Of a DNA stretch of 64,000 nt, positions 1 through 47,641 are shown one piece after another. Source of the stretch: Chiloscyllium plagiosum (taxonomy: Eukaryota); the NCBI RefSeq assembly GCF_004010195.1, contig NC_057718.1:52700498-52764497 (forward strand). Direction: 5' to 3'. The notes beneath the pieces were generated by a model. The model had not been told where the DNA came from. It did not search any database and worked only from the letters and a program-made list of their open reading frames with translations. Each line of letters starts with the position of its first letter. Within the stretch, counting starts at the first letter, position 1. Both the position numbers and the translations under genes were made by a program.

Positions 1-1048
1 GTTGGGGGCCGGGGAAACGGGAGTCTTGGAGGAGGTGGAGGGCGTGGGTGGTGTCTCGAACGTATGTGGGGAGTTCCTGGACTAGGGGGGATAGGACAGT
101 GTCGAGGTAGGTAGAAATGAGTTCAGGTGGAGCAGGAGCATGCTGAGACAATGGGTTGGCCAGGGTGGTCAGGCTTGTCGATCTTGGGAAGGAGATAGAA
201 CCGGGCAGTGCGGGGTGTCCCAGACTATGAGGTTGGAAGCTGTGGGTGGGAGATCTCCTGAGGTGATGAGCTTCTGTATGGTCTGGGAGATGATGGTTTG
301 GTGATGGGGGGTGGGGTCAGACCCCACCACCAGGGATATATTTCCCTCCCGCCTTCCGCAAAGACCATTCCCTCTGTGACTACCTGGTCAGGTCCACCCA
401 CCCTACAGCTCATCCTCCCATCCTGGCACCGTCCCCTGCCACCGCAGGAATTGAAAAACTTGCGCCCACACCTCCTCCCTCACCTCCATCCAAGGCCTTA
501 AAGGAGCCTTCCACATCCATCAAAGTTTTACTTGACATCCACCAATATCACTTATTGTATCCGTTGCTCCTGATGCGGTCTCCTCCACATTGGGGAGACT
601 GAATGCCTACTAGAAGAGTGCTTCAGAGAACATCTCTGGGACACCCGCACCAATCAACCACACTGCCCAGTGGCCCAACATTTCAACTCCCCCTCCCACT
701 CAGCCGAGGACATGGCGGTCCTGGGCCTCCTTCATCGCTGCTCCCTCACCACCCGACACCTGGTGGAAGAACGTCTCATCTTCTGCCTTGGAACACTTCA
801 ACCCAAGGGCATCAATGTGGACTTCAACAGTTTCCTCNNNNNNNNNNTATGCTACTTTCTCCCCCCCCCCACCCTCCTCTAGCTTATCTCTCCACCTCTC
901 AGGCTCTCTGCCTTTATTCCTGATGAAGGGCTTTTGCCCGAAACGTCGATTTTACTGCTTCTCGGATGCTGCCTGAACTGTTGTGCTCTTCCAGCACCAC
1001 TAATTACAAAGTCTGGTTTCCAGCATCTGCAGTCGTTGTTTTTACCTG
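1..1048 (+). mobile_element. Penelope-like element, family A, inverted structure (1-~320 minus; ~320-1048 plus: GIY-YIG region and terminus)
   Basis: Decayed GIY-YIG-type text (..CIRCS*CGLLHIGET..; VAQHFNSPSHSAEDMAVLGLL..RHLVEERLIFCLGTLQPKGINVDF) followed by the terminal motif CTGATGAAGGGCTTTTGCCCGAAACGTCG shared with other copies; strand switch near 320. Confidence 0.85.
916..951 (+). ncRNA. Minimal type I hammerhead ribozyme motif (PLE family A)
   Basis: ATTC-CTGATGA-A-GGGC(TTTT)GCCC-GAAAC-GTC-GATT: intact core, 4-bp helix II, palindromic ACGT helix III, GUC cleavage triplet. Confidence 0.75.
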
Positions 1049-1947
1049 GGCTTTAAGCAAAGCACATTGTATTCTTACAGGTAAAATACAAACAAATTAA
1101 AGAAACATTGGCATAACTAACCCTATTAAAAGACTTAACAAAATATTATTTAATGACTACTTAACTATTCCAACATAGTAACATCCCACACATTCTCGGC
1201 AAAGGCAAATTCGGCAAAACAGTGTTATTCTCACGCGTGATCTTTTCACTCTAATCCAGCAGAATGAAATACTGAAAGAAAAAAACCAGTCTAGTAACAG
1301 AGAGAGAACTCAAGCTTTTTTTGCAGCAGCAAAGAGAGGGCTTTATCTCTTAGCTTCAACACCATAATCCCAACTTCAACAACTGAAAGTAGAAACTCAA
1401 ACCCTGGGTCTGTGTGAACCTCATTCCACCCACACTTGCATCTTTATTCCAAATATAAAAAAAAACCTCCAAAACTGTTTACTCTGCTTTCCCTGGACGC
1501 AGGTACCTCACCACCAGGTTTAAAACGGTCATCTTCGAGACAAACAGGACCGAACAAATCCCTTTTAAAAGATGTATATCATTGCAATTGCTTGTCTGAA
1601 TGAACTGGTCATGCACATTCAGTCAGGCTAGGACAACCAGTTCCTCAGTCTTTGAGGAATGGCTGATGTTTCAGGATCTGCAGTTGTTAATTTGTACTCC
1701 ACCTGTCACCTAGGATTAATTCTGCTCTTCGGATGGTCTCACTGAAGTAGAGTCTCTGGAAATGCCATTGAAGAAAGTGCAAAAATCAGAGAGAGCTGGA
1801 ACCCCTTTTACTCTCCTCTTCACGACCTTCAAAAATTCTGTGTCTTGAGTCTAATGCTAGCATTGGATGGGGGCAGGATGACCCAAATAAGGTGACTGTT
1901 TTCTATATTTGGAGTTCATAAAACATAAGAGTTGAAGGTTCAAAACC

Positions 1948-2718
1948 AGATAAGTGTAGTCAGTGGCATTGTGCAAGCAAATGTGCCAGATGATATCCAC
2001 CACAACAAGTAATATGATGAAAGGCCAGGTGATTTAGTTCTGACGAGATTGGTCAAAGCTGGAAGAACTTTTTGCTGATTCTGAGAAATGCTCACTGTGG
2101 TCAGGTGACCTCCAAGATTGTTGTGAAAATATTGATATTTTTGCATGATCATGGCTTTAAAATATTTGTCATTGTGTCACTGAGCTGGTTGCCATCAGGT
2201 CTGCGCAGCATTCCAATAAAGCAGGTTCACTGAAGGTGTAAGCAATGTTTCACAATGAACCAATGTGGCCATTTATACCTGGCCTGTTGGTTTTTTGAAG
2301 GGCTTTTGCCTGAAATGTCGATTTTGCTGCTCCTCGGATGCTGCCTGAACTGCTGTGCTCTTCCAGCACCACTAATCCAAAACTCGTTGGTTTTAATGCG
2401 AAGCTGATTTTCCAAGGCCTGGCTGCATGAATACTGTTTGTTCCAGCTCTGCAGTTTGCACATCGCAGAGCCCAGAACTGTTTAAACTTGGCTTCCACTT
2501 TGAGATTTTTAAGCCGTGATCATGAAAATATGTCAATATTTCTATAACATTCCTGGAAGTCACCTGACCACTGATTATTTTTCTGTAACAGCAAAAAGTT
2601 CTTCCAGCTTTGACCAATATCAACAGAGCTAAATCACCTGGTCTTTCACCTCATTACTCGTCATGGTGGATATCATTTGGCATATTTGCCTTCATAATAC
2701 ACTGACTACACATATCTG
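1948..2718. repeat. Old long inverted repeat (arms ~1948-2163 and ~2500-2718), MITE/foldback-like
   Basis: Arms align as reverse complements over ~215 bp with scattered mismatches, e.g. ggtcaaagctggaagaactttttgctg vs cagcaaaaagttcttccagctttgacc. Confidence 0.8.
2296..2380 (+). mobile_element. PLE family A terminal fragment with decayed hammerhead
   Basis: tgaagggcttttgcctgaaatgtcgattttgctgctcctcggatgctgcctgaac, nearly identical to 924-1003. Confidence 0.8.
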
Positions 2719-4059: not shown

Positions 4060-5700
4060 AGGAAATGATGTTCATTCAAAGAGTCGGTGTCTGACATCAG
4101 TACTGGGGAAAAATATTGGAGTACAGAATAAAAGATGTAGTAGCAGAGCACTTGGAAGTTAGTGACAAGATTAGACAGAGTCAGCATGTATTATGAAGGG
4201 GAAGTCATGCTTGACATGCCTGCTGGATTGTTTTTGAGGATGTAACTAACAGGGTGGATAAGAGGGAGGCAGTGGATGTGGTTTACTGGATCTTCAGAAG
4301 TCTTTTGATTCAGGTCTCAGATAACAGACCAGCATATAAAATTAAAGCACATAGCCTGGAGCTTGAGTACTGACTGGACTGAGAACTGGTTGGCAGACAG
4401 GAAAGAAGAATAGTGGCAGATGGTAGCTAGTCAAAGTACAGCAACGATCAGTGCTTGGAGCCCAACTATTCATAATATACGAATAATTTAGATGAATAAA
4501 CAATGTGTCATAACTCCAGGTTGGCAGAAAACAGAGCTGAGTGGGAGGTTATGCTGTGAGGAGGATGCAGAGAAGTTTCAGTGTGATTTGGACAAGATAA
4601 ATAAGTGGGCAAATGCATAGCAGATGCAGTATAATCCATAGACTGGGAAAAGGAGGAGGCACAATGAGACCTAGGTATCCTCTGACATCAGTCACTGAAC
4701 ATAAATGTGCAGATACAGCAGGTAGTGATGTCAAATGGCATGTTCAACTTCATAGTGAGATGATTTGAATACAGGAGCAGGGATGCCTTGCTGCAGTTGA
4801 GCACGGCCTTGGGAAGACCACATCTAGAGCATTGTATGCAGTTCTGATTTCTTTATCTGAAGATGAATGTTCTCACTGTTAAAAGGGAATACATTGAAGG
4901 TGTAGTAGACTGATACCTGGGACAGTGGAACTGATGTACAGAAAAATACTGGACCGGTCAGGATGACCTTCACTGGTATTTAGATGAATGAGGGAGAAAT
5001 CTCAAATCTATAATATTCTAACAGGAAGTATGTTTAGATCAGAGTGGTGCTGGAAAAGCACAGCAGGTCAGGCAGCATCCAAGGAGCAGGAAAATCGTGG
5101 CAGGTGAGACAGGTCATGAGGACAGTGCTGAGCTAGAAGGTTGGAACTGGGGTGAGGTGGAGGGAGGGGAAGTGAGGAAACTGGTGAAGTCCCCATTGAT
5201 GCCATGGGATTGAAGTGTGCTGAGGCAAAAGATGAGGCGTTTTCCTCCAGGCATCAGGTGGTGAGGGAGTGACAGTGGAGAAGACCCAGGACCTGCATGT
5301 CCTCAGCAGAGTGGGAGGGGGAGTTGAAATGTTGGGCCACGAGGCGGTTTGGTTGATTGGTGCAGGTGTCTCGGAGATGTTCCCTGAAGCGTTCTGCAGG
5401 AAATATGTTCTATTCAGGGAGTCCAGAACTAGGGGTGGCAGACTAAAGATAAAGGATAGCCTTCTGATGAAGAAGAATGTATTCACCCAGAAAGCAGTGA
5501 GCATATGGAACCCTCTGTCACAGAAACTGTTGAGGCCAAAACGTTGACATTGCAGTTGATATAGTTTATAGGGTAAAAAGGATCAAAAGGATATGGAGAG
5601 AAATAGGTCTGGGACTACTGAGTTGGATGATCAGCCACAAACATATTGAGTGATGGATCAGGTTCAAAGGGCTGAATGATTGTACATTCTATCTATATTT
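4060..5700 (+). mobile_element. CR1 LINE ORF2 RT and 3-prime end, decayed, interrupted by a PLE
   Basis: Decayed QSQH..KGKSCLT-like and VDVVY motifs; CR1-type 3-prime end (gggctgaatg..). Confidence 0.8.
5035..5396 (-). mobile_element. PLE family A 3-prime fragment inserted in CR1
   Basis: GIY-YIG C-terminal text plus terminus; 13-bp TSD caggaa(g/a)tatgtt at 5022-5034 and 5397-5409. Confidence 0.8.
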
Positions 5701-9195: not shown

Positions 9196-9550
9196 TGTGG
9201 CATGCTGGCTCAGTGATTAACACTGCTACCTCAGAGTGTAATGGACCGGCGTTTGATTCCAGTCTTGGGTGACTGTCTATGTGGAGTTTGCATAATTTGT
9301 CTGTGTCTGTATGGGTTTCCTGTGGGTGCTCCAGTTTCCTTCTACAGTCCAAAGATGTGCAGGTTGGATGGATTGGCTGTGCCAGAAATTGCCCATGCTG
9401 TCCAGGGATGTGCAGGCTAGGTGGGTTGGCCATACGAAATGCAGGGTTATGGGGAACAGGTAGGGGCTTGGGTCTGGACGGGATGCTCTTCAGAGGGTCA
9501 ATGTGACTCGATCACCAAATGGCCTGCTTCTACATTGTAGGGATTCCATG
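9196..9550 (+). mobile_element. HE1-type tRNA-derived V-SINE
   Basis: A-box-like head, V-domain tgtggagtttgca..gggtttcc..tccaaagatgtgcaggtt, LINE-derived tail. Confidence 0.85.
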
Positions 9551-9599
9551 AGATGAGTTTAGCAAAAGCTTGATTACATTTATATTCATCAGATCACAC

Positions 9600-12419: not shown

Positions 12420-12678
12420 AGAGGCTCAGTGGTTAGCACTGCTGTCTCACAACACCAGAGTCCCAGGTTCGGTTCTAGCCTCGGGCGACTGTCTGTATGG
12501 AGTTTGTACATTCTCTCCTTGTCTGCGGGTACTCTGGTTTCCTCCCACAGTCACAAAGATGTGCAGGTCAGGTCAATTGCCCATAGTGTTAGGTGCATTA
12601 GGTGGGTTACTCTTTGGAGGGTCGGTGTGGACTGGTTGGGCTGAAGGGCCTGTATCCTCACTGTAGGGAATCTAATCT
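12420..12678 (+). mobile_element. HE1-type SINE
   Basis: ggctcagtggttagcactgctg head, V-domain, tail gggctgaagggcctgt..aatctaatc. Confidence 0.9.
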
Positions 12679-12680
12679 TT

Positions 12681-13007
12681 TGGGTGCTACGGTGGCATCG
12701 TGGTTAGCACTGCTGCCTCACAGCGCCAGAGACCCCGGGTTGAATTCCCGCCTAAGGCAACTGTCTGTGTGGAGTTTGCACATTCTCCCCATGTCTGCGT
12801 GGGTTTCCACCAGGTGCTCCGGTTTCCTCCCACAGTCCAAAACTGTGCAGGTTAGGTGAATTGGCCATGCTAAATTGCCCCATAGTGTTAGGTGAAGGGG
12901 TAAATATAGGGGAATGGGTCTGGGTGGGTTGCTCTTCGGATGGTCGGTGTGGACTTGTTGGGCTGAAGGGCCTGTTTCCACACTGTAAGTAATCTAAATC
13001 TAATCTA
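12681..13007 (+). mobile_element. HE1-type SINE, full length, directly after the previous copy
   Basis: Complete head, V-domain and tail ending taatctaaatctaatct. Confidence 0.92.
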
Positions 13008-14216: not shown

Positions 14217-15465
14217 CATGCTTAGGATCAATCCATTCAACAAGCTATTCTGTATCCACAGAATTTAGTTATAATCATGTCAGACATTGAATCAGCAGGC
14301 GAGAGGACTGATATTTTTGCAGTTAAGTAGAAGGTGTAAACAATTCTACCCACTGCTGCAGAAACCTACAAATTCATGTATGCCCTTATGTCTCTTTTAC
14401 CCCCAAAAGGGAATACAGACTCTTCAATAGTTACCAAGTATATTGGTTTATGACTAAAAGTAATAATACATCTCTACTGATGCTTTTAAAGAAATGCACA
14501 ATTTGGCAATGACCAGCTCTAAGGAAATAGACACGTCCATCCATTAACTCAACAGGCAACACTTGAGATTTGAGAGATTTTCAACTTCTGCTAACTTATA
14601 AAGTAAAAATATCCATATTCAAATATCACCTAAAAATTTCACTCTTATGACACTCATACACTGAAGAAACTCTTTCATGAGTGCAAAATTCAGTCAAGCA
14701 GTGAGTGTTGGCAATTTCATTGGACTTCTTTATTCACTCCGAAGGAGTTGGAAGGGAAGAAGGAACAGAGCAAGAACTTCTCCAATGGCAAGATCTTAGA
14801 AATTGGGGCACCGCACAAACATTTCGGTCATCATTAGTCACTAAAATAATTGCATTCACCAACCCATTTAGTCACTTGCAGTACAAATTCCACTAGATTC
14901 CTTATGTGGAATGTAATTCATAAGGATGCCAAGTTGGTAGAAGTGATGAACGCTCCTGCGTACAGGTGGCTGAAGTGGAGAAGGCTGATCCTGTGCAGAA
15001 ACAAAGGAAATATCAGACACTGAATTAAGTGTATTTAAAAAATGATCTTGCAGAACGACATGAGAAAAAAAGTGCTCTGCTAGTACATCTCATTTAAAAA
15101 TACTTCTCACAAGAAGTGCACGAGACAGAAGGGTTAGTGAGAAAATTTAATGTTTTCATTTGCCTCAATCAGTGAAGATTGCTTAACAGTTCAAGGCAAC
15201 TTGGACTGTGACAGCTGCAGAAATATCATCTTTCACAATATTGACCATTACTCTTAATGGTTGTGATTCGGAGATGCCGGTGTGGGACTGAGGTGTACAA
15301 AGTTAAAGATCACACAACACCAGGTTATAGTCCAACAGGTTTAATTGGAAGCGTTGGCTTTCGGACGTCGCTCCTTTATCAGGTGGTTGTGGAGAACACA
15401 ATTGTAAGACACAGAATTTATAGCAAAAGTTTACAGTGTGATGTAACTGAAATTATATGTTGAAA

Positions 15466-16620
15466 AATTGTCTTCATCCAGACGCAAGGAACAGCCATGG
15501 CACCCCAATATGCCAACATTTTCATGCACAGGTTTGAACAAGACTTCTTCTCTATGCAAGACCTCCAACCAACATCATACATCAGGTACATTGACAACAT
15601 TTTCTTCCTCTGGACCCATAGCGAGGAGTCACTGATAAGACCACACAGTGATATCAACAAGTTTCATCCTACCATCAAACTCACCATGGACTATTCTCGA
15701 CTATCTGTCTCATTCTTGGACACATGCATCTCCATCAAGGATGGACACCTCAGCATCACACTCTACCACAAACCCACAGATAACCCCACAATGCTACAGT
15801 TCTCTAGCTTCCATCCAAAACGTATTAAAACAGCCATCCCTATGGACAAGCTCTACGCGTACACCGGATCTGTTCAGATGAGGAAGAACGCGATGGGCAC
15901 CTGGAAGTACTCAGGGATACCCTCATAAGAACAGGGCATGATGCTCAACTCATTGACCAGTTCCGACATGCCACAGCAAGCAACCGTAATGACCTCCTCA
16001 GGAGATAGACATGTGCTGCAACCGCCAGGGTACCCTTCGTTGTCCATACTTCCCAGGAGCTGAAAACTGCACCATGTTCTTCATGACCTGCAACACATTA
16101 TCAATGAGGAAGAGCACCTCTCCAAGACCTTCCCCACACCTCCACTGCTCGCCTTTAACCAACCGCTAAACCTCGAACAGATCATTATTTGTAGCAATAG
16201 TCTGTCACGGTAGACACTGCAAGACGTGTCAGAGTGTGGACATGGATACCACCATTACACATGGGGACACCTTCCACCATGTATGTGGCAAGTAGTCATG
16301 TGACTTAGCCAACGTTGTCTATCTTATGCGTTGCAGGCAAGGATGCCCTGAGGCATGGTACATTGGTGAAACCGAGCAAAGGCTACAACAACGGATGAAT
16401 GGGCACTGCACAAAAATCATCTGACAGGGGTGTTCCGTCCCAGTTGGGGAACACTTCAGCAGTCCAGGACATTCAACCTCAGACTTTCGGGTGACCATCC
16501 TCCAAGGCGGACTTCAGGACAGGCAGCAGCGAAAAGTGGCTGAGCAGAGGCTGATAGCTAAGTTCTGTTCCAATAGGGAGGGCCTCAACCGGGACCTTGG
16601 GTTCATGTCACTCTACAGGT
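15466..16620 (+). pseudogene. PLE reverse transcriptase / GIY-YIG endonuclease pseudo-ORF
   Basis: ORF 15497-15928 has Penelope RT motifs with YIDD changed to YIDN; frameshifts and stops downstream; GIY-YIG at ~16300-16410. Confidence 0.88.
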
Positions 16621-16633
16621 GACCCCATTGCAC

Positions 16634-17050
16634 TATACACACACACAGACACTCCTACACAAACACGCCCACACACACACACAGGCACTCCTATGCACAC
16701 ATGTACACACAGACACACGGATACACAGACATGCACACAGACACTCACACACACAGTCCCACACTCACACATGCATCGTCTCACAGACTTAGACTACTTT
16801 ACACTCACACACACATATACACTCTCTTTCACAGACACTCACAACCCCCCACCCCAGATACACATACACATTCACACACACTCCTATAGACACACACACT
16901 CTCGCACTCACACATGCACACTCTCACAGCCTTAGACATTCTACACTCACATACAAACACATATACACTCTCTCTCACACTCACAACCCCCCACCCCAGA
17001 CAGGAAGACAGACACACACACAAACCCACATGCACACATATACATATATG
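16634..17050 (+). repeat. Degenerate (CA)n-rich simple repeat inside the PLE 3-prime UTR
   Basis: Runs of acacacac/actcacac. Confidence 0.9.
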
Positions 17051-17420
17051 TTTGTGGAGTGAATTTGTACTTGCAGAGTTACATTTACTTTACTCAAAAA
17101 CTGCATGAATCCATGTAAGATTCTGTTAACTCACTTTTTAGATTAGAATCAGTCTAAATATTATGGCACAGACAGGGAGCACAGAGTCTAACACCTTCAA
17201 CATATTATCTGGCTGACACCAACTGTTACAGTTAATCTGAAAATGTAACTTTTAAAAAAAAGTTTTGTGATTTACATATGAAAGAAGAGAAACTGTCATG
17301 GTATTCTAACAGATGAAAGACTCAACAAACAATCAAGGTATTTTTCAATGTATAATTTCAGTTACATCACACTGTAAACTTTTGCTATAATTTCTGTCTC
17401 ATAATTGTGTACTCAACAAC

Positions 17421-17455
17421 CACCTGATGAAGGAGCGTCGCTCCGAAAGCTAGTG
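17421..17455 (+). ncRNA. Minimal type I hammerhead ribozyme motif (PLE family B), intact
   Basis: CAC-CTGATGA-A-GGAGC(GTC)GCTCC-GAAAG-CTA-GTG: helix I CAC/GTG, 5-bp helix II, palindromic AGCT, CUA triplet. Confidence 0.8.
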
Positions 17456-17742
17456 TTTCCAATTAAACCTGTTGGACTATAACCTGGTGTTGTGTGATTT
17501 TTAACCTTATTGGTTGGTTATGGCTGGGGGAGTTGAACTCTAGAGTAATGGAAAGGAGGCAGCATTATATGCTGGATACAGAGATCTCAAGAACTCTATC
17601 TGAGGACATGCAGGATATTCAGCAATTCTCCCCCAAAGATTAAGTTGTTTTATATAATTTGGTACTGTCTGATTTCTTGGCACCAGTGGCAACTAACATC
17701 ATGATTCAATGCGGAATAACAGAACAGGAGGTAATTTCAAGG

Positions 17743-18023
17743 TGTGCGGCATAGTGGTGTGAGAGTTAACACTGCTACCTCACACTGCTAGGGACCCAGT
17801 TTCAATTCCACCCTCAGGTGACTGTCTTTGTGGAGTTTGCGCATTTCCTGTGAGGGTTTCCTCTACAGTCTAAAGATGTGCAGACTATGTGGATTATCCC
17901 TATGGGAAATGCAGTGTTACAGGGATAGGGTAGGAACGTGGGTCTAGGTTAGTTTCTTTTTGAAGGATTCGTGTAGACTCGATGGGCTGAATCACCTGCT
18001 TCCATACTATAGGAATGCTATGA
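17743..18023 (+). mobile_element. HE1-type SINE, older copy
   Basis: Head, V-domain and tail recognisable. Confidence 0.8.
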
Positions 18024-18294
18024 TAATGCTGAGTTAAATTCCACCTGCCACTCCTCAGCCAATTCGACCATCTGACCTAGACGTCGTTGGCTTTGGTTAG
18101 GACAATATCACCAAAACATTCTTTGCTTGATTCTCTTAGTTGCCTTTGTTGGTGAGAGGAATTCAGCTGACCAAGAAGAAAAATATCTGCCCTTCTTGGA
18201 ATTATTTCCTTGAAATAAGCACCATAATAAAGAGTAAACCATTCTTTTATCATATCGTAACCCCTCAGATGACACAAGTTTTATCAAAGGAAAA

Positions 18295-19950
18295 CGACAG
18301 TCACAGGTGAGGTGCCAGAAGATTGGAGGTTGGCTAATATAGTGCCATTATTTAAGAAAGGCTGTAAGCAAAAGCAAAGAAACTATAGACTGGTGAGCCT
18401 CACGTCAGTGGTGGGTACATTTTTGGAGAGGATTCTGTGGGATAGGATTTCCATGTGTTTGGAAAGGCAAGGACTGATTAGGGATAGTCAACATGGTTTA
18501 GTGCATGGAAGATCATGTCTCACTAACATGATTGAGCTTTTTTGAAGAGATGGAGAATCGACGTTTCGGGCATAAGCCCTTCTTCAGGAACAAAACGTCG
18601 ATTCTCCTGCTCCTTGGATGCTGCCTGACCTGCTGCACTTTTCCAGCAACACATTTTCAGCTCTGATCTCCAGCATCTGCAGTCTTCACTTTCTCCTTTT
18701 TTGAAGAGATGACAGGTTTGATGAAGGCAGAACGCAGACATTGCCTGTATGGTCTTCAGCAAAACATTTGATAAGGCTCCGCATTGTAGACTGATTAATA
18801 AAGTTAAATCACATGGGATCCATGGTGAGCTAGCTAACTGGATACAAAATTGGCTTGAAGGTAGGAGACAGAGAGTGATGTTAGAGGATTACTTTTCAGA
18901 CTGGAGCCCTGTGACTCCATGAGGTGCCACAAGGATAGTGCTGTATCTACTGCTTTTCACCACTTGTACAAATGATTTGGATGTGAATACAGAAGATATG
19001 GTTAGTCAGTTTGCACTTGACACCAAAATAGGTGGAGCAGTGGACAGTGAAGAAAATTATCTTGGAGTACAATGGCGCCTTGGTCAGATGGCCGAATGGG
19101 CTGAGGAGTGGCAGGTGGAATTTAACTCAGATAAATATGAGGTATTATATTTTGGAAAGGAAAATCAAGGCAGAACGTATACACTTAATGATACTGTCCT
19201 GTGAAGTATTGCTTAACAAAGTGACCTAGGGATGCAGGTACAGTGTTACTTGAAGGTGGGGTCACAAGGATAGAGTGGTGACGATAGTGTTTAGCAAGCT
19301 TGCTTTCATTGGTCAGAACACCATCATGATTCATCATCATGAGTATGGGAATTGGGATGTTATGTTGTGGCAGTATGAGACATTGGTCAGGCCATTTTTA
19401 GAATACTACCTATAGTTCTGGTTGCCCTTCTATAGGAACGATGTTGTTAAACTTGAGAGGGTTTAGAAAAGATTGACAAGGATGTTGCTGGGACTGAGGG
19501 GGTTTGTACTATAGGGAAAGGCTGAATAGGCCAGGGCATGTTTCTTTGGAGTGGAGGCTGAGGGGTGACCTTATGGAGATTTATAAAATCATGAAGGCGA
19601 TAGATCGGTGTATAGCCAATGTCTTTTTTCCCTAGAGTGGTAGAATTCAAAGCTAGAGGGCATAGTAAACCTTAATAGCTGAGAGGGGAAAGATTTAAAA
19701 ATTACCTGAGGAGTAACCTTTTCATGCACAGGGTGGTGTGTGTATGGAGCAAGCTGCCAGAGGAAGTGATGGAAACTGGTCCAATTGCAACATTCACAAG
19801 GCATCTGGATGGGTTTGTGAATAGGAAGGGTTCAGAGAGATATGGACCAAAAGCTGGCAATTGGGACTAGTTCAGATTGGGATGGATTGTCGGCATGGGT
19901 GAGTTGAACTGAAAGATCTGGTTCCATGCTGTATAATTCTATGACTCTGT
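18295..19950 (+). mobile_element. HER1/CR1 LINE ORF2 RT and 3-prime UTR
   Basis: PEDWRLANIVPLFKKG..NYRLVSLTSVVG..DSQHG..GRSCLTN; SQFALDTKIGG; tail ..ctgtataattctatgactct resembles the SINE tail. Confidence 0.92.
18553..18696. mobile_element. PLE family A inverted mini-insertion in CR1, with hammerhead on the minus strand (18556-18591)
   Basis: Minus strand TTC-CTGAAGA-A-GGGC(TTAT)GCCC-GAAACGTC-GATT; flanked by duplicated tttttgaagagatg. Confidence 0.85.
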
Positions 19951-20819
19951 AAACTTCATGGAGTCACAAGTATTCTGCATTCTGCTGAAGCTAATTGAGT
20001 TATTATAGTAAAAAGTATTGTTATCATATTCATGATTTTTTTGTTGAAAATTTAATATTCTAGAAGAATACAAAAGCTGTTTGTGGAATTTGACCCCTCA
20101 AAGGCATTTAAGCTTTCACTGATGGACATGCTATTCTGAAGGATTGTACATTTAAATTATGTAGAGCAGTCTAGTTTATAAAACTGTTGTATAGCTATAA
20201 TCTGATCAGTCAACACTGAAAGTCTTTCTCAAATAAGAACAAAGAATGCTGGAAACACCCAATAGGTCAGGTAACAAAGAAACAGAGTTAACATTTCAAG
20301 TTCAGATGATCTATCAGAAAGTGTTTGATGAAATTGTCTCCATTCTTTCTCAGCAGCTCTTTGAGACCTTGCTGTGTGCTCTTCATCTTTGTTTTCTTCA
20401 GTCTTTGAGGAGTCAACTTTCCATTCAGTCTGCTTTCCAGGAATTTCAATTTTGAAACACTTTTGCAGAGAAAAAGTCATGGAGGACACAACAGGCTATG
20501 TTCATTCATTGGACTTGAGAAGGCACTTGGATTTTCCATTCATTTTGCCAATGGAAAATTTAAAATTTAAAATTGGCAGTGATCCTTATTGCACATCCAA
20601 CCAAAATATTGTCGTCTTTTCAATATTGTCAGATGCCAACTTTTTTTGAACACTTCTTATTTCAAAGAGCTAGTCTGCTGACTGGTTCAGGGCTGACATT
20701 ACTGTGATGGAACCTATTATTGAATCCTAATGGTGTGCTCATTGATTACAAGAGTGATTCAAATGAGACAAAAACAAAATGATGAATGAGTAAAACCGAC
20801 TTAGAGTAATGTTTAATAG

Positions 20820-22150
20820 AGATGAAATCAACAGGGTAAGTCAGGGTGACTGTTCTTGATGTCAAGGTCGTATTTGACAAAGTATAGTATCAAAGAACCC
20901 CAGCAAAAAACTAGATGGAATGAGATTTGGGGGAAATATTTTCACTAATTGGAGACCTAGTGAGCAAAAAGAAAGATGGTCCTTTGTGGTTCTTCGACAT
21001 CAATCCTCTTAGCCACATGACATCACTGTAGACATTACTCAGGGTAGTGTTGTGGACCCAACTGTCCCCTACTTCTTTATTGGGGCATTCCTACCACCAT
21101 ATAAGGAGAAAAGCGAGCATGTTTGCTAATGACTGCATAAACGTTTAGCAACAATCATGACTCTGATACTGAAGCAGTCTGTGTTGAAATGCAGCAAGAC
21201 CTGAACAACATTCATTCTTCCGTTGATAACGTGGTACGTAACATTTGCATTATACAAGTGTCAGTTAATGACCATCTCCTACCAGAGAGCCTAACCATTG
21301 CCACTTAACATTCATTGGCAAAACCATCACAGAATCCTCCACTATCAATAATATCTCCCAGAAACGGAACTGGACCAGCCATATAAATACAGCTCAGAGG
21401 CTGGGAAATCTGCAGTAACCAACTCACCTCCTCACTACTCGAAGTCTGTCCACCATCTGCAAAGGAGCGATCAATGTGGTGGTATCTTCTTCACTTCCCT
21501 GAATGAGTGTGGCTCCAACACAGGCAGTCCAACATCATGCAAGACAAAATAGTCCACTTGATTAGCTCCCACCCAAACACTCTCTCCACTACTAATGCTG
21601 ACTGCCAGCTTTATGCCATCTACAAGCTGCAGTGAAACTCATGCTGGAATCTTTGACAGCACATTGCTCAACTCTACCAGCTAAAAATGACCAGGATACC
21701 AAATGTATAACAATATTCCCACTTGCAAGCTTGCCCCGCCACACCACCACCCCCAGCCCTCCATCCAAACCACACATCATCCTGACTTGGCACACTCTCA
21801 ACAGTTTTTGGTTAGTGGTGCTGGAAGAGCACAGCAGTACAGTTTTGCAACATCCAAGGAGCAGCAAAATAGATGTTTCGGGCAAAAGCCCTTCATCAGG
21901 AATAACAACAGTACTTCACTATTGTTGAGAGTCAAAATCCTGGAATTGCAATCTTGAGTTTATTTACCAACTATGGATTGAGAGTTGTCCCACAGAATAA
22001 TCAAGCAACAGCTGATGTTGTCATACTCAAGGAAACATACAGTGTCCCAGAGACCACCATACCCTCCCTAGGTTATGTCTTATCAGAGGTGAAGGAATAA
22101 TGGTCTATATTCAAGAGGAGATGTCCTGGGGGAGCTTCAATATTGACTCA
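20820..22150 (+). mobile_element. CR1/L2-group LINE RT and 3-prime fragments
   Basis: LDVKVVFDKV, MFANDC remnants; same family as 6320-8990. Confidence 0.7.
21806..21905 (-). mobile_element. PLE family A terminal fragment with decayed hammerhead (21868-21903)
   Basis: Reverse complement attcctgatgaagggcttttgcccgaaacatct..; caacagt duplicated on both sides. Confidence 0.8.
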
Positions 22151-27770: not shown

Positions 27771-28612
27771 ACCTATTGCATGATGATCTGTCAACACATA
27801 ATGACACTGTTCTCTGTGATAATGAAGGTGACCACCTTATTTACTTTCATGGCATAGGCCTCTTTCAAACAGCCACTGGATTCTCTGCATACAGCAATAC
27901 TTGTGTGTATTCATCAGGCGATGGGAATTCAAATCTTTGGCATCGTTGGAAATTTCCCATAGGTTAGGACTGTCTATGTTTGTAGATTTATTGCTCAGTG
28001 TATAAGGTTATTCAGTCCAGCTTATTGTATCCATTTAGGGACTTCTTATCATTTAACCTTGCATCATCCAATTGCTTCTTAAATGGTTTCAGGGTTTTTT
28101 TTGTCTTTCATCTGGAATATTTACTGAAGATTAATAACATTGAGAGAAAAATTGTTTCCAATATCATGCCAACAATGACCTACTAGTTTGAAGTATATGA
28201 ATCCAATTCTATTTATATGAATACCTAACAATACTATCAGCCTCTGTATGATTACTCCATGCATGACTCCTATCAAGCTGACATACCTACATTATATTGT
28301 TGTGGTCTGCATGGAGACCAATAATCTAAAAGAATCAAACATTCCAAATGACTCCAACTGTAAAGATTAATGGGCAGTATTTGACTGTTTCAAACCATTT
28401 TTCTACTACTCAAACCTAACTCAACACAAATCAAACACAAACTAACAGGCAAATTGTATTTAATAGAAAATGTAAAACACACATACAATACCTGACAAAC
28501 AAAGATTAGGTCTCACAGATATAAAAAGTCCCTTCAGCATTAAGTCACAGAGGTCTTCAACATTTCAGACCCCCTTCTCCCCAAGTAGAGTTTCAGTTCC
28601 TTTATTCACAAA

Positions 28613-28817
28613 GTTAAAAATCACACAACACCAGGTTATAGTCCAATAGGTTTATTTGGAAGCATTTCCTTGTGGAGCGCTGCTCCTTCGTAAGAGGGTT
28701 GATTAAGGAGCAGCACTCTGAAAGCGAGTGCTTCCAAATAAATCTGTTGGATATAACCTGGTGTCGTGTGATTTTTAACTTTGTACACCCCAGTCCAACA
28801 CTGGCACCTCCAAATCA
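28613..28817. mobile_element. Palindromic mini-element made of two inverted PLE family B termini
   Basis: Arms are reverse complements; 12-bp TSD tttattcacaaa at 28601-28612 and 28818-28829; hammerheads decayed. Confidence 0.88.
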
Positions 28818-30455
28818 TTTATTCACAAATGTGTTAGACAATGAATCCCATCTGACAGTAGCTTTGCTAATCCGAATTCCATAGGAACAATTTCCACCAA
28901 TAGAACACTTCAATCTATCTCTCTGCTCACAGACCAGCATTTTCGGTATTCCTTTGTGCCACAAACTTTCTGTCCAACTGTTCTTGATCACACATAGTTC
29001 TCCATAGCCTGCCTGTGCTATTCTGATCATTGCATCAATTTCTCCCATCTAATCGGCTTCTGTTTCCCCAGCAACTGACTACCTTAAGGTAGTATTTCAG
29101 AATCTCATGTCACAGCCAGGAACCCCAATTTATAGCTCCATTTAGAGATCCAAGAAATTTTAATTTCTCTTTCAGTGAGTGAATGTTTTGTCAAAAAAAT
29201 GCTTCAAAATCTAATGTTATGGCACTCAAGTTGCAAACTGCAATTCATTACAGAATTAGTCTTTAGCTATAATTCAGACCCTTGACACTGGTGTACCACT
29301 TATCGAGCTCTCCACAGTACTGCATTCAGTATTTTAATGCTTCACATTTTTCTTAGTAACCAGAATTGGATGTGGTACTCAAGGTCCAATCTGATGCAGT
29401 GCAATACAGTTTGAGCATTACTTTCTGACTTTTACTGTGCTGTCTTGTTATGTAATTCAATGTTCTATTGGCTCTGTTAATTACTTCACTTGAATGCATG
29501 GCCAGTTAGTCAACAACAATTCCAAGATTGCTTTTAGCATCATTTTAGCCATTTCAACACCATTTAAAGAGTATGCATATCATTGATTTTGTTTTAGTGT
29601 AACTCGACACTCACCTAAATTAAATTTTTTCTACTTTTTCTGCCGAGTTACATATTCTGCTTAACTCATTTGAGCAAGATCAAGCTCTCATCTGACTACA
29701 TTTCCTCTTTTCCCTATTCTGTTGTAACTCCTCTCGTAAGAAGCTATCATATTCTACACATCACTAATATATTATTACTTCACAGAATTTACTGATTTCT
29801 CAAAACTTTATGGACACATGAATTCAACTTTTAAAGGAAATGTTCAATTTTTAGCCTTTCTAAACAAGAGCTAAATGAAAACTGGTCTCAAGAAAAGCAC
29901 CTTTATTCCTCGAATTCTTGAAATTGATCAATGCTTAATGCAAGGGCAGCATTCACTGACCAGCCCTAGTTGGCCTTAGAAGGTCATGGTGAGCCGTGGC
30001 CTTGAACTGCTATACTCCTTCTGGCATAAATACAGCTTCTCTCTGAGAGAGAGAATTCCAGCTTTTTGACCTAGTGACAGTGAAAGAATATTGCTATCGG
30101 TCTAAATCATGAAGGTGTGTAGTTTGGAGGGGTGGTTTACAAATGGTTAGCATGTCTGCTGTCTTGTCCTTTAAGGTGATAGAGATTGCAAGGTTGGAAG
30201 ATGCTATCAAAGAAATCTGGGCATGTTGCTATATCTTGTAGATGTTACACACTCTTGCACTGATGGTGGTGGGAATGAATGTTTAAAGCATGGACAAAGT
30301 GCTGATTAAGTCGCAGCTTTGTCGTAGATAGTGTCAATCCTCATAAGCGTTAATTGTGCTGCATTCATTCAGTTCAGAGGAAACTTTCGTCAATCCTGAT
30401 CTGTACCATATAAATAATAGGCAGGCTTTGGAGAATCAGATGGTGAGTTAAATTA

Positions 30456-30710
30456 CATTAGATTCCCTACAGTGCGGAAACAGGCCCTTTGGCCCAACAA
30501 GTCCACACCAACCCTCTGAAGATTAACCCACCCAGACTCATTGCCCTACTCCCTCTTAATGCACCTATCACCGTGGGCAATTTAGCATGGGCAATTCACC
30601 TGACCTGCACATCTTTGGATTGTGGGAGGAAACCTACACAGACACAGGGAGAATGTGCAAACCTAGGTCCCTGGTGCTGTGAGGCAGCAGCGCAAACCAC
30701 TGAGCCACCA
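30456..30710 (-). mobile_element. HE1-type SINE
   Basis: Reverse-complement tail gattccctacagtgcggaaacaggcc and head cactgagccacc. Confidence 0.88.
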
Positions 30711-32850: not shown

Positions 32851-33389
32851 ACAAGGGCACCATGTCGTTTACCATTCAGAAGCAAGCAATATACCAAGCA
32901 TACCCCTAATCAATACATAATTCACATGTTGATTTCAAACCCAGTATCTGTAAAAAAGAAAATTAAATGCAATTTTTTGAATTGCTACTGGATTTCATTA
33001 TTTGAACTTCAAGAGTACAGTCAGTAAATTGGTTAAACACCCATCGAGCATTGGGAGTGGTATTCAGAAAAACATCAAGAGTTTCAACATTATGTCCTCA
33101 TCACAACTTGTATTTTTCAAGGAAGCTTCATAGCCTTTCTTTGTTCTACATTTCTGTGTGCTACAAAATGTCTATGCTCACCCAAAAACTGTCTTATGCT
33201 TAATCACCGGACCCAAAATGGCAACTCTGCTTTCTCTCCACAGATGCTGCCAGACTGACTGAGGTTCACCAGCAATTTTTGATTTTACTTCTGATTTCCA
33301 GCATCCACAGTTCTTTTGGTTTTTTTTATTCAGTTGGACAAAGATGATGAATGTGGTGAGTTTCCACATTAGAAGGCTGAGTACTGTTA

Positions 33390-39439: not shown

Positions 39440-39735
39440 TGCTGGGTGCACTGGTTTCCTCCCATGTTCTGAAGATGTGCAGGTTAAGTAGATTAGCCAA
39501 GCTAAATACCCATCGTATCCAGGGATATGCAGGCTAGATAGACTAGCTGTGGGAAATGCTGGGTTACGGGATAGGGGATAGGGGATAGGGGATAGGGGAT
39601 AGGGGGTAGGGGATAGGGGATAGGGGATAGGGGATAAGGGATAGGGGATAGGGGATAGGGGATGGGGATAGGTAGAGGGTAGGGGTAGGGGCTGGCACTG
39701 GGGCTGGGTGAGATGTTCTTTGGAGAGGCAGAACC
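39440..39735 (+). mobile_element. HE1-type SINE with internal tandem expansion
   Basis: V-domain ggtttcctccca..aagatgtgcaggtta followed by a (GGGGATA)n run. Confidence 0.8.
39568..39691 (+). repeat. (GGGGATA)n heptamer tandem repeat
   Basis: More than a dozen near-perfect units, degenerating into GGGTA. Confidence 0.95.
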
Positions 39736-40901
39736 TCAAGAGGGAGAACTAGAAGCTACTGCCCTGACCCAAGCTAAACTACCTTCTAAACACAGAACAG
39801 GGTCCTCCACAAACAAAAACTAACAACAGTCTTTTTCTTACTGTTTAATTGTTTTGCTCCCATCAGAACCACACCCAGGACAATTTCTCAGATAAAAGCA
39901 AATTACTGACAATGTTCAAGATCTCAAATAACAAACAGAAAGTGAAGTAACAGATTGAAGAAACTCAGGAGATCTGGCAGCAACTGTGGAGAGAGACCTT
40001 TCATTTTACTTCTAGGCATACTTCATTTTCTCTAATCCCAGGAACTTTGGTAGCAACTTGGCAGAGCAATCTAAGCAAATTCAGGAAAGGTCTGCCTATT
40101 ATGTAAATTGGAATTGAGATTATACTGCTGAGCCCTGGCATACAATTGCACGTTGGATCGATTGTACCAGCCAGAACTAATTAATGGAGATGCACTTCTG
40201 GAGGTGAGATTTAGTAATGAGGCAGTGAGAAGGCAGTGCTGTCCTTCAGACAACATCTATTTAACATTGCCGATGGCATTTAACATCAGTCTTCAATTCA
40301 TTTGACTCTTTCCTTGCTCCTACCGAGAAAATGTGCCGTACCAGCTTATTTATTGACCACAGTTATAACAAGGAGATCAGAAAATCAGTAGGGCCAATGA
40401 TTTTAGCCTTTTATCTGTTGCTGAATCACAGAAGGAAAGCAGAGGTGTACAGCACTGTAAGCATTTACAGGTGCATTTCCACATGCATAAGGATTATGAT
40501 GCATATTTCCACAGTCTATAATGAACAAGAAGGAAAATTTCAACCTTTGGAACTTAAAGGAAGAGCAAAGTTGTGGTTAAATTGCTAGATCACTAATTCT
40601 AATTCCACATGCATGTAAAGTTAAATTCAGCAAATTTATGAACTAGTTTATTAATTATTTTTTGTGATTGACAGGTACCTTCCATCCTTAACTACTAGTA
40701 TGATTACAACTCCACAATATAATGTTGACTTTTATGCTTCTGGAGTGACATAGCAAACCATTCAGTTGTTAAACCACTGCTGAAATGGTAAGACAGGAAA
40801 ACTATAAATGCAATAATTGCAGGTGTTATCAATCTCCTGGAACAAATATATAAAGTACGTGATCACTGACACAATCAGGTAAACTGAATACTGTTTCTCC
40901 A

Positions 40902-41200
40902 AAGTTAAAAATCGCACAACACCAGGTTATAGTCCAACAGGTTTATTTGGAAGCACTAGCTTTCAGAGCGCTGCTCCTTCATCACGTGGTTGTGGAATAT
41001 ATAGGACATAGAATTTATAACAATAACAAGACTTTTGCTATAAATTCTGTGTCTTACAGACTTACACTCCACAACCACCTGATGAAGGAGCAGGGCTCCG
41101 AAAACTAGTGCTTCCAATTAAACCTGTTGGACTATAACCTGGTGTTGTGTGATTTTAAACTATGTTACACCCCAGTCCAACACCGACATCTCCAAATCAA
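40902..41200. mobile_element. Palindromic mini-element of two inverted PLE family B termini, each with a hammerhead motif (40954-40988 minus; 41076-41110 plus)
   Basis: 10-bp TSD tgtttctcca at 40892-40901 and 41201-41210; plus motif CAC-CTGATGA-A-GGAGC(AGG)GCTCC-GAAAA-CTA-GTG. Confidence 0.9.
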
Positions 41201-41403
41201 TGTTTCTCCAGATGCTCTCAGCATGGTTTCAATTTATGATGATTTTCTATGCCACCCTTATTTGAAGAAGATGAAGGAATGGACCCCAGCGAGACCACGG
41301 TTATTCTGCAATAAAATAATTAAAACATATTGAGATATTGAAATTATGTTGCATATTTATGTCATGATCAAGATAACCATACAAAACAAATTTTGCCCTG
41401 GAA

Positions 41404-41421
41404 TAGCTGCCATCTGCTGCA
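41404..41421 (-). promoter_or_regulatory. Candidate CTCF-like site
   Basis: Minus strand TGCAGCAGATGGCAGCTA resembles CCASYAGRKGGCRS; lies in non-repeat-looking sequence. Confidence 0.3.
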
Positions 41422-44400: not shown

Positions 44401-44711
44401 CTGTCTTTCCTGGGTGATGTAGGGATGGGAGGATAAGGAATCTGTAATAATGCAGAATGACAATCTCCTACTGTATTTATGTGACACATCTTGTACTGCA
44501 GGAAATCCGAACAAGTTCTCGAAGTCAAAGGTTCATTCCGTGGCCCTTTTTTTCAGGGTCTTTAATGTCCCAACATATGAAGGAGAATGAGTGATATGAA
44601 TATTGACTTCTCACATTACTAAGAATCAGTTCCGATTCTTATATTCACTGTGCAGATTCATTGGAAGTGTGACTAATTGATCAATCCAAAACAGGAGTTA
44701 TTCTCACAGAA

Positions 44712-45100
44712 TCAGAGAGTCAAAGAAATGTACAGCACGGAAACAGACCCTTCAGTTCAACTCGTCCATGCCAACCAGATATCCCAACCTAATCTAGTCC
44801 CATTTGCCAGCACTTGGCCCATATCCCTCCAAATCCTTCCTATTCATATACACATCCAGATGCCTTTTAAATGTTGCAATTGTACCAGCCTCCACCACTT
44901 CCTCTGACAGCTCATTCCACACATGCACCACCCTCTGCATGAAAATGTTGCCCCTTAGGACCCTTTTATATTTTTCAACCTAAACCGATGCCCTCTCATT
45001 CTGAACTCCCCCAACCCAGGGAAAACATTTTGTCTATTTACACTATCCATGGCCCTCAAGATTTTATAAACCTCTATGAGGTCACCCCTCAGCCTTTGAT
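44712..45100 (-). mobile_element. HER1/CR1 LINE 3-prime end
   Basis: QRLRGDLIEVYKILRAMD; reverse-complement tail tacagcacggaaacagacccttc. Confidence 0.9.
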
Positions 45101-46888
45101 GCTTACAGATGCTCCTGCAAGCCCAGGCCCAGCACAAACCCAAGCAGCAGCCAAACATCCTCCTCATGAAGCTGAGACAGCTGTAAATTCCCTCAGGATG
45201 TGCAGGAAGTGCATGAGTCTTGGTATCTATTGTCCTCAATGCCATTTCCTCCAAATGAAATCACCACAAGTAAACCACATCCTGGGATTCTATCACAGAA
45301 CTACATCAACTGCTGGAATGGGACCTGCGTCATGAGGAATAGATGGCCATCCAATCCTGGTGGCCATCGAGGTGACAGCTGCATTAGGCTTTTATGCAAA
45401 AGGCTGTTTCCAAGCATACACAACAAACCCGTGTGCAATCTCACAACCATGATTCACAAATGTATCAAAGCTTTTGCTGTGCAATCTTTGCCAGATCATG
45501 CCACTTCATCTTGCTTTTGGCCGACAAGGTCAGTGTAACAGTATAACCAATGTAGCTGGTCTTCCCCAGAAGCTGGGCTCCAGAGACTGTACTCACATTG
45601 CACTGAGAGCACTGCAGCATCATTCAGAGCGTAGTGCTGGATAGGGACAGCAGGTCACGCCGCATCCGAGGAGCAGGAGAATCGACATTTTGGGCATAAG
45701 CCCTTCATCAGGAATGAAGCTTGTGGGTCGGGACTGCGAGATAAATGGGACGGGGTGGGGTTTGGGGGAAGTTAGCTGAGAAAGCAATAGATGGATGAAG
45801 GTGAGGGAGAGGGCGATAGGTCAGAGGGAGGAGTGATGGACAGGTCTGAAGGGCAGTGCCGAGTTGGAGGCTTGGGACTGGGATAATGTGGGGGGAGGGA
45901 AGTGAGGAAGCTGTTGAAATCCACATTTATCCCATGTAGTTGCAGGATTCCAAGACGGAATATGAGGCGTTGCTCCTCCAGGTGTCGGGTGCTAACAGTT
46001 TGGCGCTGAAGGAGGCCTAGGATCCACATGTTCTTGATGGAGTGGGAGGGGGAGATGAAGTGTTCAGCCACAGGAGTGGTGAGATTGGTCAGTGCGGGTG
46101 TCCCAGAGATGTTCTCTGAAATGATCCGCAAGAAGGTGTGCTATCTCCTCGATGTAGAGGAGACCACACCAGGTGCAATGGATGCAGTAGATGACATTGG
46201 TAGAAGTACAGGTAAATTTCTGACGAATGTGGAAGGATCCCCTGGGGCCTTGGACGGAAGTGAGGGGGGAGGTCTGGGTGCAGGTTTTGCACTTCCAATG
46301 GTGGTAGGCGAAGGTGCCAGGAATGGGGTGTAAGCTGCTGCGGGTGTGGACCTGACGAGGTAGGTTGTTGGTAAAGTTGAGGAGGTTGAACAGTTCATCA
46401 ACTTTACCAATACCTTCCATCCCAACCTCAAATTCACCGGGACCATCTCGGAAACCTCCCTTCCTCGACCTCTCTGTCACTGTCTCTGGCGACCAACTAA
46501 CCACAGACATATACTACAAGCCCACCGACTCCCACAGCTACCTAGACTACACCTCCTCCCACCCTACCACTTGTAAAACACCATCTCTTGTTCCCAATTC
46601 CTCTGCCTCCACTGCATCTGTTCCCAGGATGACCAATTTCACCTCAGAAAGTCCCTGATGGCCTCTTTCTTCCATGATCGCAACTTCCCTTCCCACGTGG
46701 ATGATGATGCCCTTTAGTGCATCTCCTCCAATTCACGCACCACTGCCCTTGAACTCCACCCCTCCCAACGCAACAAGGACAGAACCCCTCTGGTCCTCAC
46801 CTTCCACCCCACCAACCTCTGCATACAACGCATCATCCTCCATCTCTTCCGCCACCTCCAAGCAGACCCCTCCACCAGAGATATATTT

Positions 46889-47641
46889 TTAAAATTTGGG
46901 TGAAGATTTGTAGCTCGGGTGCTCGTTGTTGTGGTTCTGTTCGCCGAGCTGGAAATTTTTGTTGCAAACGTTTCGTCCCCTGTCTAGGTGACATCCTCAG
47001 TGCTTGGGAGCCTCCTTTGAAGCGCTTCTGTGGTGTTTCCTCCGGCATTTATAGTGGCCTGTCCCTGCCGCTTCCGGTTGTCAGTTTCAGCTGTCCACTG
47101 TAGTGGCCGATATATTGGGTCCAGCTCGATGTGTTTGTTGATGGAGTTTGTGGATGAGTGCCATGCTTCTAGGAATTCCCTGGCTGTTCTCTGTTTGATT
47201 TGCCCTATAATGGTAGTGTTGTCCCAGTCAAATTCATGTTGCTTGTCGTCTGTGTGTGTGGCTACTAAGGATAGCTGGTCGTGTCATTCATGCGGATCCA
47301 TGAACATCAACTAGCCACAAAACAACACAACCAGCTATCCTTAGTAGCCACACATGCAGACGACAAGCAACATGAATTCGACTGGGACAACACTACCATT
47401 ATAGGGCAAGCCAAACAAAGAACAGCCAGGGAATTCCCAGAAGCATGGCACTCANNNNNNNGGCCACTACAGCGGACAGCTGAAACTGACAACCGGAAGG
47501 GGCAGGGACAGGCCACTATAAATGCCGGAGGAAACACCACAGAAGCGCTTCACAGGAGGCTCCCAAGCACCGAAGATGTCACCTAGACAGGGGACGAAAC
47601 GTTTGCAACAAAAATTTCCAGCTCGGCGAAAAGAACCACAA
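46889..47641. mobile_element. PLE family C inverted insertion nested in family A
   Basis: RIHEHQLATK..LSLVATHADDKQHEFDWDNTTIIGQAKQRTAREF.EAWHS (GIY-YIG C-terminus) on both strands; 13-bp TSD cagagatatattt at 46876-46888 and 47642-47654. Confidence 0.9.
46964..47003 (-). ncRNA. Minimal type I hammerhead ribozyme motif (PLE family C); mutated partner at 47567-47606 plus
   Basis: GCA-CTGAGGA-T-GTCACCT(AGAC)AGGGGAC-GAAAC-GTT-TGC: helix I GCA/TGC, helix II with one mismatch, palindromic ACGT, GUU triplet. Confidence 0.75.

Follow-up and report, generated by a model that had tools for sequence, protein, structure and literature searches.

Minimal hammerhead ribozymes (min-HHRs) encoded by Penelope-like elements (PLEs) have been proposed to act as double hammerheads, cleavage being absent in monomers and low in dimers (PMC4209133). 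Xenopus tropicalis carries about 9,000 and the coelacanth about 4,000 PLE min-HHRs (PMC4209133), Acropora more than 6,000 motifs and the axolotl up to 120,000 canonical motifs (PMC7229834). The PAc ribozyme, from a Poseidon element of Anolis carolinensis, cuts only with the element protein, is not required when the element inserts in vitro, and is marked by no read ends in RNA sequencing (RNA-seq) data (PMC11167929). Elements of the Neptune clade have a CX2-5CxxC linker between the reverse transcriptase (RT) and the endonuclease (EN), which is missing from Penelope and Poseidon (PMC8557442). One sampled chondrichthyan genome has both retrozymes and PLEs (PMC7229834; bioRxiv 10.64898/2026.07.22.740005). 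Here, we follow up a preliminary description of hammerhead motifs in a 64-kb stretch of the genome of the shark Chiloscyllium plagiosum (G000:C9:52700498-52764497 of an assembly of 3.556 Gb), which we call the window. We conclude, with a probability of about 0.85, that the motifs are min-HHRs in the pseudo-long terminal repeats (pLTRs) of three EN-bearing (EN+) PLE families, two of Neptune type (A and B) and one of Poseidon type (C), and that their genomic copies are most likely inert passengers.

Five motifs had been listed in the window, and all sit where they had been placed: 916-951 (+) and 18556-18591 (-) in family A, 17421-17455 (+) and 41076-41110 (+) in family B, and 46964-47003 (-) in family C. 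The conserved core of PLE min-HHRs (CUGANGA, GAAA and UH) is present. A full structural descriptor (core, helix II of at least 4 pairs, palindromic N-N, UH and helix I) finds four window copies, with C3 at 920 (+), 17424 (+), 18587 (-) and 47000 (-). All four carry the extra nucleotide that lies after position 9 and before position 10.1, and the pair G10.1-C11.1, and helix III is, as had been proposed, a loopless palindrome (15.2-16.2), ACGU in A and C and AGCU in B. The motif at 41076-41110, previously listed under the family B sequence, reads GAAA-ACUA instead of GAAA-GCUA, which breaks its palindrome and keeps it from passing the descriptor; the palindrome is also broken in the 21868 copy. 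Fuzzy matching recovers 15 copies in which the motif is largely preserved (7 A, 6 B and 2 C), close to the dozen or so first estimated. The pairing of helices I and II, described as kept in all families, fails at two places. Helix I of family A in the window reads C-G, U-A, U.U, A-U, its third pair being mismatched, and helix II of family C has an A.G mismatch that the first reading had already marked. Other A lineages pair fully in helix I (AUUC/GAAU in locus L092, GGAAUC/GAUUCU in L038).

Two other kinds of hammerhead were considered and rejected. A canonical type I hammerhead does not fit, since there is no loop 3, helix I has only 2-4 bp, and an Rfam scan of the window finds no hammerhead family at E<=10; the miRNA matches of that scan are PLE inverted repeats. 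A non-LTR retrozyme does not fit either, since the window has no head-to-tail array at periods up to 500. Could the motifs simply be chance matches within repeat DNA? The core is short, and a relaxed core pattern still gives 3,862 matches over the whole assembly when reversed. However, the same pattern in its real orientation gives 236,241 matches, a net of about 232,000, the strict family patterns give none in their controls, the full descriptor finds nothing in 300 dinucleotide shuffles of the window, and a lineage with a compensatory change in helix II exists (see below). We therefore regard a chance origin as practically negligible.

The intact motifs and the elements that carry them are as follows.

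1 to 837, both strands: broken open reading frame (ORF) fragments of family A, with an inverted piece of the RT N terminus at 1-330 (-) and the linker and GIY-YIG C terminus at about 320-837 (+)
916 to 951, + strand: minimal hammerhead of lineage A1, core intact, predicted cut at 947/948 (GUC), with about 98 nt of element past the cut
15264 to 15468, - strand: inverted 5' pLTR of a family B element, with a tail of about 35 bp at 15264-15298 and a decayed hammerhead at 15351-15385
15464 to 16623, + strand: 5'-truncated, frameshifted family B ORF, with the C-terminal part of the RT (YIDN), a CHGRHCKTC linker and GIY-YIG (YIGET)
16624 to 17050, + strand: (CA)n-rich simple repeat in the 3' region of the B element
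17421 to 17455, + strand: intact family B minimal hammerhead, palindrome AGCU, predicted cut at 17452/17453 (CUA)
17462 to 17502, + strand: family B poly(A) signal, with AUUAAA at 17462-17467, poly(A) sites at 17479 and 17482 and a GU-rich element at 17483-17502; the element ends at 17508
18553 to 18697, both strands: short inverted A2 stub, with an intact hammerhead at 18556-18591 (-), a 3' half plus tail (+) and a 14-bp target duplication
46889 to 47642, both strands: head-to-head family C insertion into a family A ORF, with C-terminal GIY-YIG fragments in both arms, a tail on the left arm only and a 12-bp target duplication
46964 to 47003, - strand: intact family C minimal hammerhead, predicted cut at 46967/46966 (GUU)
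47567 to 47606, + strand: its partner hammerhead, core broken by U4C

Families A, B and C stand downstream of an RT/GIY-YIG ORF and show inverted ends and target duplications, which identifies them as PLEs. The order of RT, C-terminal GIY-YIG and terminal repeat is supported in A and C, and in B both domains are weak (RVT_1 E=0.0065, GIY-YIG E=0.0012, both under the Pfam gathering cut-off). In family A, the stretch 538-837 translates to the GIY-YIG C terminus immediately upstream of the 916 motif, and the window ORF fragments are 79% identical in amino acids to the copy at L012, which matches GIY-YIG weakly. Two family A proteins match RVT_1 (P0001, E=6.8e-8) and GIY-YIG (P0002, E=2.5e-4); the closest protein relatives are from Chiloscyllium punctatum (83-93% identity), followed by other sharks and rays, and a PDB sequence search with P0001 returned nothing at E<=1. 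In family C, the related locus L078 matches RVT_1 at E=2e-9 and related frames hold the endonuclease motif YIGQT. All ORF copies of the three families are broken or partial. A zinc linker, CHRRNCKTC, occurs in P0002 and in the DNA of L008 (decayed in the window copy), B has the similar CHGRHCKTC, and none of the four C proteins examined has one. By this motif, and not by a tree, A and B are probably Neptune-type (Nematis also fits) and C Penelope/Poseidon-type.

The structure of the insertions points the same way. The element at 15264-17508 is a typical PLE insertion: an inverted pLTR with its tail comes first, then the RT-linker-GIY-YIG ORF, truncated at its 5' end, and after a (CA)n tract the 3' pLTR. 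It is one of several inverted 5'-truncated copies, the others being at 28608-28817, 40900-41199, 46889-47642 and 56049-56224. Target duplications of 8-14 bp flank five insertions, and one end carries a tail of 30-40 bp, with C copies ending at about +40 and +72 past the cut and B copies at +55 and up to about +90. The ORF link, this insertion structure and the match to the consensus of PMC4209133 bear out the identity proposed for the motifs, minimal type I hammerheads of dimer type carried by PLEs. The families had also been called unrelated. This is true of their DNA, as the pLTRs of A, B and C have only the core in common, and does not hold for their proteins and ORF layout, which make them homologous PLEs (27-42% protein identity between A and B, 26-31% between C and the others).

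Conservation within family A follows the ribozyme. We compared the majority sequences of lineages A1, A2 and A3 (36, 21 and 4 copies, 61 of the 88 anchored copies being kept). None of the 25 core or paired positions differs between them, against 2-3 of 5 free positions and 11, 15 and 8 of 57 downstream positions (Fisher p = 0.016, 0.004 and 0.10), a test with few lineages in which one of the three comparisons is not significant. Between families, both partners of the pairs change: helix I starts with C-G, U-A in A, with C-G, A-U, C-G in B and with A-U, C-G, G-C in C, and the palindrome is of either type given above. At pair 10.2-11.2 of helix II, a compensatory A-U replaces G-C in 1,082 copies, almost all of which share one background, and 1,947 copies of mixed background have a single mismatch; we estimate that chance double hits would account for some tens of copies. 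Families lacking covariation and core conservation beyond their flanks had been named in advance as evidence against ribozymes. Given the covariation and the invariant core, both found between lineages, this is not what the families look like. Within-family decay rates were left unused, since the choice of copies was biased and 27 of the 88 anchored copies were dropped as out of register. No pair counts were drawn from a MAFFT alignment of 10 motifs, which is out of register in helix II.

This conservation bears on a different explanation, in which cleavage has become irrelevant and the motif persists in master elements either as a signal, structural or for protein binding, or as a pLTR parasite. 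The signal could serve ribonucleoprotein assembly, the positioning of the RT start site, or the context of the ORF start or of the 3' end. Catalytic mutants of PAc insert normally in vitro (PMC11167929), and Naiad PLEs without canonical hammerheads still reach high copy numbers (PMC8557442). Besides, the C motif holds an AUG, the B motif abuts a poly(A) signal, and the preferred fold of the A1 monomer is an inactive rod, with the core paired to the cut site. Yet lineages whose proteins are only 26-42% identical retain every catalytic position, the NUH rule and the palindrome, which exceeds what a generic binding hairpin needs, and PAc cleavage depends on C3 and G8 (PMC11167929). We consider this explanation possible, although unlikely.

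Selection of the fold in the element, with inert copies left behind in the genome, remains our preferred reading, and pairing between motifs suggests how it may work. Double-hammerhead pairing is complete for A with A (including A1 with A2), B with B and C with C, and fails for every cross-family pair: helix I being formed between both copies, each family pairs only with itself. Dimer cleavage of PLE hammerheads has reportedly been described by Lünse et al. in 2017. We infer that the fold is selected in replicating master elements. There, two pLTRs on a tandem transcript, or the element protein, could let the motifs pair through their 4-nt palindrome, and the double hammerhead would then cut slowly, late in the cycle. 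Reverse transcription would start 40-100 nt past the cut and often stop early, leaving insertions with one or two passenger ribozymes; such a start and early stop would put a passenger in nearly every insertion. The genomic copies, mostly solo or head-to-head, would decay neutrally and are most likely inert.

Four observations weigh against parts of this reading. The lowest-energy dimer in ViennaRNA is in no case the double hammerhead, in a calculation that leaves out the tertiary energy of the core. The conservation of the C motif could partly reflect coding, as ORF start and end overlap it. The clades are assigned by a linker motif and not by a tree. Finally, a full-length element with two direct pLTRs was not recovered, and neither of two same-strand pairs held an ORF. 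These two pairs of A motifs (L091 and L092, 2.4-2.6 kb apart) were considered as tandem elements and rejected: they are separate short insertions with no ORF between.

The number of copies is large. Over the whole assembly, strict patterns find 69,589 A, 12,186 B and 12,637 C motifs, 94,412 altogether (the C pattern stops at U16.1). The very high density of motifs proposed for this genome is thus confirmed, with about 100,000 intact-looking copies by the strict patterns. There are 26.5 strict or 65 relaxed motifs per Mb, and the window, with 4 in 64 kb, is typical. The canonical motifs of the axolotl, spread over 28 Gb, amount to about 4 per Mb (PMC7229834), against 26-65 here. The shark density is several-fold above that of the published genomes compared, a rough comparison as the descriptors differ. 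Hence, this class of PLE hammerheads can reach 26-65 motifs per Mb. The copies provide a large natural set of variants for covariation work, and there are enough of them to look for cutting by PLE hammerheads in vivo and for counter-selection by hosts.

In family C, the motif overlaps coding sequence. On the minus strand, A9-U-G10.1 (46994-46992) is an AUG at the foot of stem II, whose frame stays open through the tail, and the stop of the upstream ORF (46986-46984), which ends in STEDVT, falls at the tip of helix II. The segment 46994-46984 can therefore be read in three ways, as ribozyme, as the start codon of the next ORF copy (through the extra U) and as the end of the upstream ORF. The N7 variants of C, G and U, encode Glu or Asp.

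In family B, the predicted cut precedes an AWUAAA poly(A) signal by 9 nt. We followed its use in run X19, single-cell polyA data of which about 2% was sampled and 5,689 reads were placed at 88% likeness; the poly(A) and read-end results come from this one sample and run, and run X20, which placed no reads, gave no test. Reads run off the reference into poly(A) at 17479 (516 reads) and 17482 (620 reads), so that polyadenylation falls 27-30 nt beyond the cut, and they are sense-biased (depth 1,582 versus 272 at 17434-17480). A hexamer, AUUAAA or AAUAAA, is present in 46 of 51 B copies, and in 99 of the first 100 matches listed when its position was left free (counted by eye). The total of 7,955 family B matches seems to omit one common variant, and its listing alone was used. 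Internal oligo-dT priming was rejected as the source of the tails, since none of 40 copies has an A8 run at the site. Only 165 reads are 99% alike and the unique flank at 17528-17762 has no depth, so we credit the poly(A) reads to family B copies in general rather than to the 17421 locus in particular; mixed diagnostic letters suggest that several loci contribute. A group of 292 reads whose 5' end comes loose at 17421, which might have been taken for one expressed locus, belongs instead to a second B lineage (L093 and L094; 5,610 matches at up to 2 mismatches) that differs just upstream of the ribozyme. In this lineage, a U-rich tract and an AG precede the ribozyme. By analogy with Penelope of Drosophila virilis, they could be the acceptor of a pLTR intron. 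Since the DNA copies reach past the cut and past the poly(A) site as well, their template would have to be a read-through, multimeric or circular RNA. A poly(A) signal 9 nt after the cut thus bears on where Neptune-type transcripts end and on the template of reverse transcription.

The preliminary description had further proposed that some intact copies cleave the transcripts passing through them, and here our results do not support it. The copies are solo or head-to-head, with no intact same-strand partner of the same family near the intact window copies. Most window B and C copies lie in long hairpins, and head-to-head copies fold as hairpins with 83-92% of positions paired (four of the five pairs folded). 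Read starts or ends do not pile up at the A2 and B cut sites over 17340-18720 in X19, a weak test because cut products escape notice in polyA-selected RNA. The B site itself is spanned by reads at a depth of about 1,850. In a broader version of the proposal, host transcripts are the targets of a measurable fraction of the dispersed copies, which would cut them through same-family double hammerheads, in the same pre-mRNA, in trans or with the help of the PLE protein; introns or 3' ends would be cut, and B would remove its own poly(A) tail. Some raw material for dimers exists, as chance alone would place about 3,300 strict A copies within 5 kb of another on the same strand, two pairs of this kind were seen (as separate insertions), and A1 and A2 are cross-compatible. 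The polyadenylated sense RNA of B fits the idea, and one of nine Xenopus dimers cleaved strongly (bioRxiv 10.64898/2026.07.22.740005). However, the other eight Xenopus dimers did not cleave, published monomers are inactive and dimers slow (PMC4209133), and read ends are lacking at the PAc site (PMC11167929) as they are here. No reads of the run cover the unique flanks of the B copy, and a Pfam search of ORFs in the window, which short exons would escape, revealed no host exon; none of 52 ORFs selected from 90 of at least 85 aa indicates a host gene, and none of three other long ORFs has a Pfam match. Cutting of host transcripts therefore seems improbable to us. Still less probable is a stronger, joint statement: that the shark holds the densest latent set of ribozymes among the genomes compared, that about 10^4 loci have received from family B a cassette in which the ribozyme is joined to the poly(A) signal and the GU-rich element, and that B-ended RNAs lose their tail upon dimerisation or with the element protein. 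If true, this would amount to a family-coded conditional deadenylation switch acting on host or element transcripts.

The window is rich in repeats, and further PLE copies are scattered through it.

2296 to 2393, + strand: A1 stub ending inside the core
5041 to 5402, - strand: family A fragment with a GIY-YIG piece and a pLTR end, ribozyme deleted
21799 to 21905, - strand: A1 stub, core intact, palindrome and helix I broken (CAUC-UA)
28608 to 28817, both strands: decayed head-to-head family B pLTR ends with tail, 8-bp target duplication
40900 to 41199, both strands: head-to-head family B pair, 40954-40988 (-) and 41076-41110 (+), both damaged, one-sided tail, 9-bp target duplication
45631 to 46888, both strands: older inverted family A element, with a decayed hammerhead at 45680-45715 (-), a GIY-YIG piece (-) and an RT piece (+)
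50415 to 50539, + strand: family A stub with a decayed hammerhead
56049 to 56224, both strands: palindromic A3 stub, ribozyme cut off in the core, 13-bp target duplication

The older A element resumes at 47643-47882, beyond the family C insertion. The A2 stub is inserted into RT sequence of the long interspersed nuclear element (LINE) type, a fragment at 18300-18900 (RVT_1 E=5e-4) that it splits. Older A-related lineages with a 5-bp helix II (of the GGGUC/GACCC type) have the family A tail motif; decayed copies lie in the window at 33204-33324, 52112-52205, 39961-39994 and about 20240-20300, and such lineages occur elsewhere at L086, L010, L063, L080 and L035.

The window also holds other repeats. 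One family of dispersed repeats, about 300 bp long and with a tRNA-like head, occurs at 9199-9546, 12423-13007, 17765-18016, 30449-30710, 39443-39590 and 50902-51189; we presume that it resembles the shark HE1 family of short interspersed nuclear elements (SINEs). A heptamer array (GGGATAG, 15-19 units, 39568-39691) adjoins one SINE-like copy. At 54224-54298 (+), an Rfam tRNA match (35.1 bits, gathering 29) that ARAGORN does not call is probably a pseudogene or a SINE head. Two pairs of inverted repeats resembling miniature inverted-repeat transposable elements, 1947-2163/2505-2718 and 36985-37088/37611-37713, are 82% and 92% alike and unrelated to PLEs.

How do these families compare with known systems? 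Our literature search, with Repbase, Dfam, key papers and supplements outside its reach, found no description of shark min-HHRs or of a pLTR poly(A) signal, and no shark is among the motif rows of Fig. S3 of PMC4209133 that were compared. With this finding, a described class gains members from a shark; the poly(A) signal of family B and the high density are modest additions, which make in vivo tests practical. Like the non-LTR retrozymes (PMC7229834; bioRxiv 10.64898/2026.07.22.740005), our motifs are type I hammerheads in PLE-related repeats, and the retrozymes differ by their head-to-tail arrays (PMC7229834), of which the window has none. The hammerhead in the 3' untranslated region of rodent Clec2 genes is cut between the stop codon and the poly(A) signal, the same order as in B (PMC6765202). 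However, Clec2 has an active split ribozyme in a host gene, while B has a minimal, dimer-dependent motif in a retrotransposon, whose activity is predicted only.

Family C resembles PAc. In PAc and in C, the ORF starts at the foot of stem II, the cut falls about 26 nt further on, and copies have two end-points about 34 nt apart in an AC-rich stretch, which define the tail (PMC11167929). PAc is a demonstrated protein-assisted ribozyme, whereas the activity of C is predicted from sequence, and in C, unlike PAc, the stop of the upstream ORF also falls inside the motif (PMC11167929). With the PLE clades of PMC8557442, the three families share the C-terminal GIY-YIG domain, the inverted 5'-truncated copies and the 30-40 bp tail. 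With the min-HHRs of PMC4209133, they share the type I topology, the consensus CUGANGA-H-G...C-GAAA-N-N-U-H with the extra nucleotide at 9/10.1 and the G10.1-C11.1 pair, the palindromic 15.2-16.2, the short helix I, the predominance of solo copies and opposite-strand pairs, and the presence of several families per genome; A and C look much like the rows Nematostella(2) and Clonorchis(2) in Fig. S3. The architecture common to the three shark families is therefore that of the consensus published for PLEs (Cervera and De la Peña 2014), and not a surprising convergence.

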